Shown here one piece after another: positions 15,923 through 63,584 of a DNA stretch of 64,000 nucleotides (position 1 is the stretch's first letter; every line of letters begins with the position of its first letter). Under the pieces are notes generated by a model. It saw nothing but the letters and a program-made list of their open reading frames with translations. It made no database searches and had not been told where the DNA came from. The stretch covers positions 1 to 64,000 of the forward strand of contig JBBQRQ010000012.1 of assembly GCA_038214755.1 (NCBI GenBank). Direction: 5' to 3'. The position numbers and the translations under genes were made by a program. Source of the stretch: Verrucomicrobiota bacterium (lineage in GTDB: Bacteria > Verrucomicrobiota > Verrucomicrobiia > Limisphaerales > CANJXF01).

Positions 15923-18430
15923 ATGAGCGATGAAGCAATGAACAATTTTACGCCGCGCGCGCAACAGGTGCTGGCGCTGGCGCGCAAGGAAGCGGACCGG
16001 TTCAACCATAATTTTGTCGGGACAGAACATCTCCTGCTCGGGCTGATCAAGCTCAACCAGGGCGTGGCGGTGAATGTTTTGCAAAAGCTCGGCCTCGATT
16101 TGGACACCGTGCGAATGGAAGTGGAAAAACAAGTCGGCACCGGCCCTGACCAGAAGATGATTGGCAATATTCCCTACACGCCTCGCGTCAAAAAAGTTCT
16201 CGCGCTCGCCGCCAAGGAGGCCAAACATCTCAACCATACTTACGTGGGTACGGAACATATTTTGCTGGGACTTTTGCGCGAAGGCGATGGTGTCGCGGCC
16301 AAAGTTTTGAAAAATCTGGACGTCGATATTGAACAGGCGCGTGGAGAAATTTTGAAAGAGCTGGATCCAAATTTAACCGGAGGAGAAGAGCAGCCCACGA
16401 ACGAAGCGGCGGGCGGTTCCGAAAAAGCGCCGGAGAAAAAAGGCGAAGTCAAAACTCCCGCGCTCAAAGCTTTCGGTCGCGACCTCACCGAAATTGCCCG
16501 CAAAGGTGACATGGACCCGGTCATCGGTCGTCAAAGTGAAATCGAGCGCGTCATCCAGATTCTTTGCCGCCGAACAAAAAATAATCCGGTGCTCCTCGGT
16601 GAAGCGGGCGTGGGCAAGACGGCGATTGTCGAAGGACTCGCCCAGGAAATTTCGCGTGGAAATGTCCCCGAAATTCTGCGCGACAAACGCGTCATCACTC
16701 TCGACCTCGCGTTGATGGTGGCGGGAACAAAGTATCGCGGCCAATTTGAAGAGCGCATCAAAGCGGTGATGGATGAAATTCGCCGCGCCAAAAATATTAT
16801 TTTGTTTATCGATGAGTTGCACACGATTGTCGGTGCCGGTTCCGCCGAGGGAACGATGGACGCGTCGAACATCATCAAGCCGGCGTTGAGTCGCGGCGAG
16901 ATGCAGTGCATTGGCGCAACGACGCTCACGGAATATCGCAAATACATCGAAAAAGATGCGGCGCTCGAACGCCGTTTCCAGACCGTGAAAGTCGAAGCGC
17001 CCTCGGTGGAGGAAGCGATTTTAATTTTGAAAGGCCTCCGCATCAAATACGAGGAACATCATAAAGCCGAGATCACCGACAGCGCAGTCGAAGCCGCTGT
17101 GAAGTTTTCCGATCGTTACATCACAGACCGATATTTGCCGGACAAAGCCATTGATTTGATGGACGAAGCGGGTTCGCGCTCGCGCATCGGCGCGATGACT
17201 CGTCCGCCGGAAGTCAAAGAAATCGAAGTCTCAATTGATGAGATAAAAACGCAGAAAGAAAAGGCGATCAAGAACCAGGATTTTGAAGGCGCGGCTTCCA
17301 TGCGCGACAAGGAAAAGCGCGCCAAGGAAAAACTTGAATCGGTCATCAGCGCGTGGAAAAGCAGCCGGGAAGAAAAACGCGTCGTCGTCGATGAAGAAGA
17401 TATTTTGCAAGTCGTCGCGAAATGGACGGGCATTCCGCTGAAGCGAATGGAGCAAGGCGAAGCCGAGCGATTGCTTGCCTTGGAAGGCGAGATGGATAAA
17501 ACCGTCGTCGGACAAAAGGAAGCCGTCGCCGCCATGTGCAAAGCGCTTCGGCGTTCCCGCGCGGATTTGAAAGATCCGAGACGGCCCATTGGCACATTCG
17601 CTTTGCTCGGGCCAACGGGCGTTGGCAAAACTTTGCTCGCAAAATCTTTGGCCGAGACTTTGTTTGGCGATTCCAAATCGCTCATCCAACTCGACATGAG
17701 CGACTATATGGAGCGCCACAACGCGTCGCGCATGGTCGGTTCGCCGCCCGGCTACATCGGTTTTGAAGAGGGCGGCCAACTCACCGAACAAGTGCGTCGC
17801 AAACCGTATTCGGTCGTGCTCTTTGACGAAATTGAAAAGGCGCATCCCGACGTGATGAACATGCTTTTGCAAATTCTCGAAGAAGGAAGATTGACCGACA
17901 ACATGGGTCGCGTCATCAATTTCCGAAACACGATTATTTTGCTCACGTCGAACGTCGGCGCGGAGACGATCAAGAAACAATCGAGCATGGGTTTCTCGCC
18001 CATCACCGACGAGAACAGTTACGAGAAGATGCGCGAAAAAATAATGGACGAAGCCAAGCGCGTTTTTCGTCCTGAATTCTTAAATCGTCTGGATGACATC
18101 ATCGTCTTCCGCTCGCTTACCAAACCTGATCTTATGGAAATCCTCGATCTGGAAATTGGGAAAGTCTTTACGCGACTCAAGGGGAAAAACATTGCGATTA
18201 GTTTGGACACCAAAGCAAAAGATTTCCTCGTCGAAAAAGGATACGATCCCACTTACGGCGCGCGGCCCATGCGCCGGGCGGTCGAGCGTTACTTGGAAGA
18301 CCCGCTCGCCGAAGAAATGCTTAAAGGCAACGTGCAAAACAACGAGCCGATTGCGGTGACCGTTGACGAAGGCAAACTTGTTTTCAAACAAAAAGCGCCG
18401 GCTGTCGAACCGGTTATCAGTCCGAGTTAA
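15923..18430 (+). CDS. clpC: ATP-dependent Clp protease ATPase ClpC
   Basis: Double Clp-N domain, GEAGVGKT and GPTGVGKT Walker A motifs, short UVR middle domain, MGF ClpP-binding loop. Confidence 0.96.
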
Positions 18431-18640
18431 ACCCGAACTCCGAAGTTGGAATGGGTAGCACGTGCGACCCCGTGCCGTCCGGCCACGGGCCGGACGGAAT
18501 GGAGAGAACGCTGGCATTGGAAAAATAGGTACAGAATAGTTTGTGCGCTTCCCCCGTTCCGAGCGGCGAGTCGCCGCTCGGCGCAGGCGGGTCCCCTGTG
18601 CTACCCGGCGGCTTCGCCGCCGCTATTTCGGAATTAGGGT
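18431..18640. mobile_element. MITE-like element family 1 (14-bp TIR, TAA duplication)
   Basis: TAA|ACCCGAACTCCGAA...TTCGGAATTAGGGT|TAA. The left TAA is the clpC stop. Internal GGGTAGCAC...GTGCTACCC palindrome. Confidence 0.8.
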
Positions 18641-18933
18641 TAACAGCGTTAAAAATAAAATGAACGGCGCTCTCGTAGCGTCGTTTTTTTATCAGGACCC
18701 CTCTCTCGTTTTTTCCAGGGACTCCAGTGCGTGCAAAATTTCTTAGGTGTTCCTCGGTCTTCACCTTTCGCCAGATTTTTTGATCCGACCGGCGCTGACC
18801 AGGAAGAAGTGTTGTCCTTTGTTAAGCGAGACCTTGGGACTCAAAATGAATCAGCTAACGAGAAGATTTTTTCTACAGAACCGGTGGCGTTGTCACTGCG
18901 CCGCCGGTCGTGGTGTTTGCATTTGCTCCTCGG

Positions 18934-19882: not shown

Positions 19883-20136
19883 GCCATAACTATTCAGTGA
19901 GAAAGTTGCTCGCCCTCACCCTGGCCCTCTCCCCCGAGGAGAGGGGACAGCTATCCGCCTCTCTTGGAAAATTCGTTCGTGACAATCGCCGTCGCTCTCT
20001 TTGAATCATTCGAAGAGAAGAACGCACGACAACCCGGCGCACTCGCATTGCCAAAGCGCGGCAAATAATTCTCCCTCTCCTCGGGGGAGAGGGCCGGGGT
20101 GAGGGCGAGCGTTTCAGTCCATTGACCCGTTACGGC
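19883..20136. mobile_element. MITE-like element family 2 (degenerate) containing a CCCTCACCC...GGGTGAGGG palindrome
   Basis: TAA|GCCATAACTATTCAGT...ATTGACCCGTTACGGC; same architecture as 46981-47178; right TAA absent. Confidence 0.65.
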
Positions 20137-23749: not shown

Positions 23750-23813
23750 ATCGTTGAAGCGGTAAATCGTTGAAGCGTTAAAGCGTTAAAGCGTTAAAGC
23801 GTTGAAGTGTTAA
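23750..23813. repeat. Octamer tandem repeat (AKCGTTRA)n
   Basis: About 8 units; the same unit occurs at 29608-29666 and near 29830. Confidence 0.8.
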
Positions 23814-23988
23814 ACTCGAATTCCGAAGTTGAAACGCAGGATGAAGATGGGGGAGCGCACGCCTCCGGCGTGTGGTTTTCGGCGTCGCGCCGAAAACTCG
23901 TTCCACACTATTGTCCCCTCTGGAAAAGTTTATGGACAAAGGTTCGGGCGCGACGCCCGAACCGGCACGCGAGGACGCGCGCGCTCCC
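23814..23988. mobile_element. Orphan family-1 TIR followed by a GGGAGCGC...GCGCTCCC palindromic element
   Basis: TAA|ACTCGAATTCCGAA at 23811-23827; palindrome 23851-23988 related to 63468-63584. Confidence 0.7.
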
Positions 23989-24044
23989 ATGCCTACAGCC
24001 TTTCCCCCTTGTCAACCAGGCTCCCGGGGCGCAGAATATCGGTC

Positions 24045-24401
24045 GTGAGTAAAAATGATGTCTCAGTCCTTGGGCCGGCTCTCACGCCAGAGGTGCCGCC
24101 GCTGCGGATGGACGCAGAAAAGGTGATCCGCATCGGGACGACGCGGGTGACGCTCGATACAATGGTGGCGGCATTTCAGCGCGGAGATACACCGGAAGAG
24201 ATCGCTCGCAATTACGATGCGCTGTCGCTTGGCGAGGTCTATCAAGCCATCGGTTACTACCTGGCACACCAAACCGACATGGATGCGTATTTGGAGCGAC
24301 GGCAGGTATCACGCGCGTCAGTCCAAAAAGAGGTGGAGGCACAGCATAACCCGAATGGCATTCGCGAGCGCCTGCTGGCGCGCCGGAGGCAACCCGTCTG
24401 A
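24045..24401 (+). CDS. DUF433 domain protein (antitoxin-like)
   Basis: RIGTTRVTLD...GDTPEEI...LSLGEVYQAIGYY; GTG start inferred. Confidence 0.85.
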   Translation: MSKNDVSVLGPALTPEVPPLRMDAEKVIRIGTTRVTLDTMVAAFQRGDTPEEIARNYDALSLGEVYQAIGYYLAHQTDMDAYLERRQVSRASVQKEVEAQHNPNGIRERLLARRRQPV

Positions 24402-24754
24402 TGCTCCGGTTCGCCGCCGACGAAAATTTCAACGGTGCTATCGTTCGCGGCCTGCTCCGTCGGCAACCCACACTGGATTTGGTTCGCGTTCAGGACACCG
24501 GCCACTCGGGGATCAATGATCCTGACTTGCTGGCATGGGCGGCGCGTGAGCAGCGTGTGATCCTGTCGCATGACGTAGCGACGTTGCGGCAGTATGCCGA
24601 AGATCGAGTCCGCGCGGGACTACCAATGCCCGGCGTCTTCGAAGTGGGTGAGCATCTCTCGATTCGCGAGGCTATCGAGGATTTGTTGCTGATCGCCGAG
24701 TGTAGCCAGCAAGGTGAATGGGAAGGACAAGTTTATTTCCTTCCGTTGCAGTAA
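24401..24754 (+). CDS. DUF5615 PIN-like toxin
   Basis: FAADENF...D..LL.WA...R.ILSHD; TGATG coupling to the DUF433 gene. Confidence 0.85.
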   Translation: MLRFAADENFNGAIVRGLLRRQPTLDLVRVQDTGHSGINDPDLLAWAAREQRVILSHDVATLRQYAEDRVRAGLPMPGVFEVGEHLSIREAIEDLLLIAECSQQGEWEGQVYFLPLQ

Positions 24755-24932
24755 CCCCGAACTCCGAAATGGAACGCGGGAACAGGAACGGAGCGCGGCG
24801 GTAAAGCCCCGTACTCGTGCGGCGGCGGCCGCGGGGGGGTTCCCCCCCCCCCAAACCTCCCCCGGGGCCGCCCCCGCCCCCCCCCCCCCGCTCCGGCACA
24901 ACTTTACACGCACGCTACTTCGGAGTTCGGGG
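24755..24932. mobile_element. MITE-like element family 1 (perfect 14-bp TIR, TAA duplication)
   Basis: TAA|CCCCGAACTCCGAA...TTCGGAGTTCGGGG|TAA. The left TAA is the DUF5615 stop. Interior has suspicious poly-C/G runs. Confidence 0.85.
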
Positions 24933-24975
24933 TAAGTCTGACCCGGCGGCGCCGGTGACTGTGATCTCTCGCCCT

Positions 24976-63467: not shown

Positions 63468-63584
63468 GGGAGCGCACGCGTCTCGCGTGCAGGTTCGGGC
63501 GTCGCGCCCGAACCTTCGTTGCACAAACTTCTTCGGTTGATTACGAACAGATAAAGTCAGCGGAACGAAGTTTTCGGCGCTCCC
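63468..63584. repeat. GGGAGCGC...GCGCTCCC palindromic element, right arm partly deleted
   Basis: Inverted homolog of 23851-23988. Confidence 0.8.

Follow-up and report, generated by a model that had tools for sequence, protein, structure and literature searches.

Two short, repeated DNA elements lie in the window, a 64,000-nt stretch of a Verrucomicrobiota genome (Limisphaerales; assembly GCA_038214755.1, contig JBBQRQ010000012.1, positions 1 to 64,000), each at the stop codon of a gene. We conclude, with a probability of roughly 0.85, that element 1 (18432..18639, + strand, 208 bp) and element 2 (24756..24931, + strand, 176 bp) are miniature inverted-repeat transposable elements (MITEs), that is, non-coding deletion derivatives of insertion sequences (ISs) of the IS1380 family, and that their interiors are of the REPIN type, doublets of repetitive extragenic palindromic (REP) hairpins. 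The observations that carry this reading are the shared ends (below, the shell), a 5-bp target duplication, an empty site in relatives, an IS with matching terminal inverted repeats (TIRs) in congeners and in public records of metagenome-assembled genomes (MAGs), and the presence of several kinds of core within one kind of shell. The genome of the window (G000; 5.1 Mb in 175 contigs, 97% complete, 53% G+C) was compared with 40 relatives, giving a set of 41 genomes, in which G005, G006 and G008 are congeners, G024 belongs to another family of the same order and G013 to a different family.

The order of features at element 1 is the stop codon TAA, an A, the left end CCCGAACTCCGAA from 18432 and, at the far side, TTCGGAATTAGGG to 18639, followed by TTAAC. 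The gene upstream (15923..18430, + strand) encodes an 835-aa ClpC/ClpB-type AAA+ chaperone with the Pfam domains Clp_N, AAA, UVR, AAA_2 and ClpB_D2-small, and its 3' end is kept in all 40 relatives searched. Its stop codon (18428-18430) falls within the left target copy, TTAAA (18427..18431, 5 bp), which agrees with the right copy, TTAAC (18640..18644), at four of five positions. The multicopy unit, read from the sequence as a non-autonomous IS1380-type element, has a left TIR (18432..18451, + strand) that resembles the IS end CCCGAATTCCGAAGTGGA, on comparison with the ends of locus L061, and a right TIR (18622..18639, - strand, two mismatches) that resembles the other IS end (..CCGAGATAGA). 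Between them lies a REPIN-like core (18453..18606), recognized from the inverted repeats I1-I4, an alignment of 24 copies and the fold. Because a hairpin with a T-run lies 3' of the element (18662..18686, + strand; terminator-like by consensus scan only), element 1 sits between the clpC stop codon and a likely terminator.

Element 2 has perfect 13-bp ends and is arranged similarly, with the stop codon TAA, a C, CCCGAACTCCGAA from 24756, TTCGGAGTTCGGG to 24931, and then GTAAG. The TAA stop of a DUF5615 gene (24401..24754, + strand; open reading frame (ORF) list and Pfam) falls within the left target copy, GTAAC (24751..24755, 5 bp), and the right copy, GTAAG (24932..24936), is again the same at four of five positions. 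As far as can be judged from sequence, both ORFs that end at the elements look like real genes. A first-pass annotation of the window had assigned a common 14-bp TIR to the two elements and had noted that both are flanked by TAA, the left one being the stop codon of the upstream gene. The shared ends and the stop codons stand, the latter on direct reading, the ORF list and Pfam, whereas the first base of the proposed TIR belongs to the duplicated target. A third left end proposed at the same time is real: CTCGAATTCCGAA begins at 23815 and heads a hairpin-rich element, element 3 (23815..23991, + strand), in which a left shell end, CTCGAATTCCGAAGTTGAAA, is joined to a REPIN-like core of the GGGAGCGCAC type and a right shell end is missing.

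One part of element 2 should be left uninterpreted. The G/C-homopolymer stretch at 24801..24888 is unlike the cores of the family members on contigs C77 and C25, and is probably an assembly artefact. In the sole public run that contains the window, which consists of contigs and is probably the source sample, independent contigs reach up to 24800 and begin again at 24889, and a loose contig end at this break resembles the normal core of the E2 family (the family of element 2). At the elements, the contigs of this run show repeat-to-repeat joints, not excision, with the limit that contigs cannot reveal rare empty alleles.

The shell ends span about 13-20 bp and read 5'-CCCGAAYTCCGAA, then GTTGG, GTAG or ATAG; CCCGAAYTCCGAA is itself made of two NCCGAAN heptamers. 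Within the window, when no more than two mismatches are allowed, the motif is found 6 times against 3.47 expected, which is not significant. The genome-wide search that the first-pass annotation had called for gave a clear answer: CCCGAAYTCCGAA has 25 sites in G000 and its reversed control has one, and 18 of the 25 sites form inverted pairs 164-212 bp apart (of the remainder, 3 lie within heptamer-array elements, described below, and 4 are solo or truncated ends). Among the relatives, G005 has 69 sites, G024 has 43, G006 has 34 and G003 has 17, and the motif was not found in 16 of the 41 genomes searched. Copy numbers that vary so widely among relatives are the pattern of a mobile repeat.

The shelled elements are non-coding, 97-239 bp long and multicopy. 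By BLAST, element 1 has about 24 whole-unit copies (~210 bp) in G000 at 77-91% identity, and its family (E1) occurs also in congeners and, at about 75-78% identity, in G024. The E2 family has four copies in G000, with relatives of element 2 at C77:15486-15654 and C25:5208-5376 and a truncated copy on C17, and others in G002 and G005. Element 3 shares its core family with a shell-less REPIN-like element of the window (63468..63584, one REP unit partly deleted); among about 15 loci of this family (E3), one has both shell ends, two have the left end only and the rest have neither. The locus with both shell ends, a relative of element 3 at C59:4244-4448, has an ATTAA/ATTAA duplication. It was thus rightly seen at the outset that the interiors belong to different palindrome families, one of which also occurs without a shell. 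In G006, a shelled element (L052; G006:C203:9667-9894) sits at a TTTAA inside or beside another one, a nested MITE.

The footprint of insertion was examined in 36 complete elements, 14 from G000 and 22 from G002-G008. With the boundary set at CCC/GGG, a perfect 5-bp direct repeat flanks 16 of them (7 of 14 in G000, 9 of 22 in relatives), while shifted boundaries or other lengths yield 0-3 perfect repeats, with the exception of the nested central 3-mer (20 of 36). When the flanks were re-paired 20,000 times, the mean was 2.45 perfect 5-bp repeats and the maximum 10. The target consensus is T-T-N-A-A, position 2 being T in 68 of 72 flanks and position 4 being A in 71 of 72. The elements had initially been described as duplicating 3-bp TAA, and a 3-bp boundary model did fit the early examples. 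However, in 16 of the 20 elements with a central T-N-A match the outer positions match too, including CTCAG, CTTAG, GTTAA and ATTAA, and agreement at outer positions with letters other than T and A goes beyond what a 3-bp model predicts. That model has been replaced by the 5-bp one with its boundary at CCC/GGG, in which TAA is the center of the pentamer.

The clpC locus provides an empty site. In G005 and G008 the end of the gene reads ...CCCGAGTTAA|GCAGC..., followed by a hairpin/T-run terminator, with no element, whereas at the same stop G000 reads ...CCGAGTTAA, A, element 1, TTAACAGCG, and then the terminator-like hairpin at 18662-18686. Element 1 and one target copy were thus inserted between stop codon and terminator. 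Empty sites in relatives, one of the checks proposed in the first-pass annotation, are thereby documented at one locus.

Members of the IS1380 family, according to ISfinder, have ends that begin with CC and generate repeats of 4-5 bp. The 5-bp duplication and the CC ends therefore raised the suspicion of this family, and a search with the profile NF033539 (cut-off 180 bits) was made. The profile matches G005:C116:169-1380, and the first 13 bases of this contig are the CCCGAAYTCCGAA motif. The IS (G005:C116:1-1531, 1531 bp) starts with CCCGAATTCCGAAGTGGA and ends with CTCGGAGTTCGGG, followed by TTAAG. Its single ORF of 473 aa scores 229 bits on NF033539 (profile positions 5-419 of 419) and 111 bits on PF13701, matches by which it is predicted to encode an IS1380-family DDE transposase. 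End fragments with 100% identity lie at no fewer than four (>=4) further G005 contig ends, the left flank of one of them being TTAAG, the same as the right flank on C116, and G006 carries a copy that is 90% identical. Public genome records hold 33 related loci, mostly in Verrucomicrobiota MAGs (Limisphaerales, Pedosphaera, Akkermansiaceae and others), 18 of which are complete elements of about 1.5 kb with shell-type ends; among public IS copies with both flanks, the 5-bp duplication is perfect in 6 of 16. The first 15-16 nt of the left end of the G005 IS are the GTTGG-type shell end, and its right end, CCCGAACTCCGAGATAG, resembles the ATAG-type end. Element 1 has one end resembling each of these two non-identical IS ends (GTTGG/GTGGA vs ATAG/GATAG), as expected for an internal-deletion derivative. 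The idea of a DDE-mobilized shell thus holds up, being favored by the target duplications, the empty site and an autonomous element whose TIRs match, and the autonomous IS that it called for exists in G005, G006 and public records, though not in the G000 assembly.

Other candidates for the partner in G000 were considered and set aside. Long-range TIR pairs (600-4000 bp apart) in this genome are neighboring separate MITEs only and include no autonomous element. There is no match to PF13359 (DDE_Tnp_4), searches with PF13586 and PF13358 yielded nothing with shell ends, none of the five PF01609 (DDE_Tnp_1) loci is bracketed by the motif, and the ends of an IS5-type element at C7:57401-58281 are unrelated to the shell. 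G000 does have an IS1380-family copy of its own on C104, but its ends differ (CCCGCATTTCTC). This element (G000:C104:9880-11600; about 477-2201 of locus L062) encodes a 477-aa transposase that scores 363 bits on NF033539, and its ends, CCCGCATTTCTCACCAA, have TTAA on both sides, a piggyBac-like TTAA footprint.

The interiors point to a different class of selfish DNA. The core of element 1 consists of two inverted units, each made of GGGTAGCAC (with a GTAG tag) and two hairpins, and an 18-nt outer stem closes the structure; its DNA fold has -56.9 kcal/mol (z = -4.5), and a 97-nt relative reaches z = -11.2. The tag is GGGAGCGCAC in E3 and P4 and GGAGCGCGG in E2, both of them degenerate. In all, at least six unrelated core types and a heptamer-array interior occur within the same 13-20-bp ends (G000, G002, G003, G005-G008), in agreement with the original description of a shell that encloses REP-like hairpins of several unrelated families. 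Shelled copies have DDE-type ends and a target duplication, unlike REPINs as these are defined, whereas shell-less copies such as 63468-63584 fit the definition.

Genes resembling those of REP-associated tyrosine transposases (RAYTs) are represented by 17 Y1_Tnp matches in G000, several of which have hairpin doublets from families of 50-220 copies on their flanks; the REPIN/RAYT complement of this genome is unusually rich. Doublets stand on both sides of the Y1_Tnp genes at G000:C10:59183-60227, C149:11-987, C13:65728-66601 and C37:21404-22306, with doublet families of about 220, 50 and 56 copies at these genes. A Y1 gene with flanking doublets is the classical REPIN/RAYT arrangement. Two types of shelled core are related to such flanking repeats. 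The GTAGCGGCGGGCG-type core (L026 type, found in G005 shells) matches repeats on both sides of Y1 genes on G005:C108 and G000:C5, and the L027-type core, also from a G005 shell, matches a repeat beside a Y1 gene on G005:C44.

Composite copies keep their length, as seen in one family with seven copies of 206-207 bp in G005 and G006, and constant length together with the duplications implies joint movement of shell and core. The core's GTAG directly adjoins the 13-bp end in several families, and the variants L023, L024 and L026 differ by the exact loss of a 22-nt linker; at the level of sequence, both hint at junction-specific events. A separate multicopy sequence in G005, starting with (C)AGTAGTGTTCGGCCAAT, breaks the REP hairpin stems within shelled elements, and contigs end there (L029, L032, L033, L036, L037 and L039, all at G005 contig ends). 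It has the look of an insertion sequence whose targets are REP hairpins.

A number of observations weigh against the interpretation of the elements as IS1380-derived MITEs with REPIN-type cores. The duplications are imperfect in 20 of the 36 elements, including both window copies (4 of 5 positions); often the central base alone differs, as could result from decay or from recombination between copies. The clpC site is the single empty site found. Three further G000 loci gave no syntenic comparison, their flanks being on different contigs or only one flank being available, and for element 2 no clean empty site was found, G013 sharing the DUF433 gene next to it but having other repeats at the site. 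The partner IS was not found in the G000 assembly, which has no DNA match to it and whose best tblastn match to the partner transposase is 24% identical (E = 0.002), and no such transposase was found in G003 and G024 despite their many copies, so that for these three genomes mobilization is inferred rather than shown. By sequence, the G000 copies look orphaned, or else their partner is unassembled. Among the 19 Y1 neighborhoods with which cores were compared (12 of the 17 of G000, and 7 of G005 and G006), there is no match to the E1, E2 or E3 cores, and it is therefore architecture alone that marks these three families as REPIN-like. Finally, at the same boundary the heptamer-array family has perfect duplications in 10 of 100 pairs, mostly of the shell type.

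The heptamer-array family comprises 59 or more loci, each about 170 bp long (e.g., G000:C11:34203-34367, C4:14674-14846 and C10:29403-29596). Its arms are inverted NNCCGAA arrays (ATCCGAA x2-6, then CCCGAAATCCGAAAGAA...) with a variable number of outer heptamers, and its center of about 60 bp is not a hairpin. Members of the family in G003 bear CCCGAAYTCCGAA caps and show perfect duplications of TTAAA or TTCAA. Possible partners of this family are the IS1380 relatives whose ends are CCCGAAATCCGAAGTT (L127, L130, L131, L138).

Together, our data suggest a model in which a DDE transposase of the IS1380 family, supplied in trans, would recognize the shell ends and insert the element into a T-T-N-A-A pentanucleotide, which would be duplicated in the process. 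The interiors are doublets of hairpins with a GTAG tag, such as are found beside Y1 (RAYT-like) genes in G000 and its relatives, and shell and core would be amplified jointly as a unit. Candidate routes by which cores may have entered shells are RAYT insertion beside the GT(A/T)G adjoining the 13-bp end, template switching promoted by hairpins, and recombination. A more far-reaching reading, which we put forward tentatively and think unlikely as matters stand, is that two transposition systems are coupled, REPIN doublets of HUH/Y1 RAYTs being loaded repeatedly between the ends of piggyBac-related IS1380 elements. REPINs would thereby gain a second, DDE-driven route of spread, perhaps through RAYT insertion beside GT(A/T)G. 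Should core loading prove active and recurrent, it would offer a tangible example of a selfish element that travels on a second one, and a route for REPINs, in families such as E1, E2 and E3, to outlive their RAYT and to pass between genomes.

Other explanations start from the same elements. Elements of the IS1031 group and PIF-Harbinger elements typically duplicate 3 bp of the form T-N-A or T-W-A, and the first-pass annotation had accordingly thought of an IS5 or PIF-Harbinger-type MITE that duplicates 3-bp TAA/TTA. TAA does stand beside both window elements, and the central T-N-A match in 20 of 36 elements would suit such a MITE, but the extension of most of these matches to the outer two positions does not, nor does the survey of G000 transposases, with its lack of DDE_Tnp_4, the unrelated ends of the C7 IS5-type element and the absence of the motif around the DDE_Tnp_1 loci. 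Given also that an IS1380-family element with a matching TIR exists (229 bits on NF033539), we hold this the least probable of the alternatives, with very little left to recommend it. The abundance of Y1_Tnp genes and hairpin-doublet families in G000, and the two core types that match RAYT-flanking repeats, might instead suggest that a Y1 transposase (RAYT or TIRYT-like) moves the entire unit as a REPIN variant, with the ends as part of its recognition site; tyrosine transposase genes flanked by TIRs ("TIRtrons") are indeed described in one survey (PMC3733652). This is improbable to a high degree: the repeats beside the Y1 genes examined have no CCCGAAYTCCGAA ends, and in 18 of the 33 public loci the same ends enclose a DDE transposase gene. 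Moreover, HUH/Y1 transposition leaves no target duplication, unlike the 5-bp duplications seen here.

Equally doubtful is the view that the elements are primarily structured sequences with a function for the host (3'-UTR stabilizers, terminators or protein-binding arrays) and that their dispersal is secondary. The position of element 1 between the clpC stop and a terminator-like site, a fold far better than that of shuffled sequences for it and its 97-nt relative (the z values given above), and the occurrence of the E1 family in G024, which is of another family, at about 75-78% identity would all be in keeping with a host function. Yet no Rfam family matches either element at E <= 1 (three sub-threshold matches were obtained, none of them on the elements), copy number ranges from 0 to 69 among relatives, the element at the clpC site is present in one genome and absent from others, and the target duplications, together with an autonomous IS, speak for selfish spread. 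Copies may nonetheless have acquired a function after insertion.

The coincidence of insertions with stop codons, which was remarked on from the beginning, is weak. The duplication overlaps a stop codon in 4 of the 14 complete G000 elements, of which 3 are solid (both window copies and one on C48), against a background in which 9.4% of YTNAR sites that do not disrupt an ORF overlap a stop codon; the binomial P is about 0.04 for >=4 and 0.14 for >=3. The test is rough because its crude, ORF-based gene model also calls ORFs inside repeats. We attribute the coincidence to the A/T-rich target, which holds TAA or TGA, and to purifying selection: in a genome with 53% G+C, A/T-rich pentamers with TAA or TGA would be common at gene ends, where insertions would be tolerated.

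The elements combine familiar types of selfish DNA in an unusual mosaic and do not represent a new type. Like IS1380 and ISEcp1, the partner belongs by profile to the IS1380 family, as it passes the NF033539 equivalog cut-off and matches PF13701, and it shares the CC ends and the 5-bp duplication; the elements described here differ in their defined T-T-N-A-A target, their ends of two NCCGAAN heptamers and their REPIN-type interiors of at least six kinds. By title or abstract, no publication among the matches listed links IS1380 to such MITEs, and none describes a REPIN/RAYT/MITE mosaic of this kind. The cores resemble REPINs (PMC3116915, PMC3337134) in being inverted doublets of GTAG-tagged hairpins and in having relatives that flank Y1_Tnp genes. 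GTAG repeats have been reported in Verrucomicrobia, namely in Opitutus terrae (PMC3733652). The shelled elements differ from classical REPINs, which are not known to have the TIRs of a DDE element or a target duplication. Tn3-derived inverted-repeat miniature elements (TIMEs; PMC4133298) offer a parallel in which one set of transposase-recognized ends is combined with varied, unrelated interiors; here the transposase family is IS1380 and the footprint 5 bp.

Eukaryotic transposons of the piggyBac group have a TTAA target and CCC...GGG ends. The ends studied here also start with CCC and end with GGG, and their palindromic target is centered on TTAA, but the duplication is of 5 bp with a free central base instead of 4-bp TTAA, and the comparison is one at family level. 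In a phylogenetic study, IS1380 transposases are the prokaryotic outgroup that roots piggyBac trees (PMC10813416). MITEs of the IS5 (IS1031 group)/PIF-Harbinger type such as Tourist share the A/T-rich T-N-A target core; they differ in duplicating 3 bp rather than 5 bp, and no matching transposase was found in G000. The present assignment places an abundant, previously unassigned class of Verrucomicrobiota repeats under a named transposase family, and it defines T-T-N-A-A, duplicated over 5 bp, as the target of an IS1380 lineage. It should be of use in the annotation of MAGs, whose contigs often break at these repeats, and in the study of bacterial relatives of piggyBac and of the spread of REP/REPIN hairpins.

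Several further features of the window deserve mention. Immediately to the left of element 3, about five tandem 8-mers resembling GCGTTAAA (23768..23814, + strand, read from sequence) stop exactly at the TTAAA that adjoins its left end, and they may stem from repeated duplication of the target region. A DUF433 ORF (23829-24401, Pfam) lies upstream of the DUF5615 gene, and the pair is enclosed by the shell end at 23815 and the right end of element 2 at 24931, which are inverted relative to each other at a distance of 1119 bp. In its DUF433 part the pair shows 83-86% identity to G013, which comes from a different family. Composite mobilization or horizontal transfer of the bracketed pair is possible. 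Another abundant doublet family, with arms CTCGCCCTCACCC..CCCTCTCCCCCGAGGAGAGGG, has a member at 19906-20113 of the window and about 140 BLAST matches genome-wide, and it adjoins a Y1_Tnp gene on C58. The stretch at 19906-20113 gave two sub-threshold matches to the Rfam family Whalefall-1, and its summed contig depth is very high.

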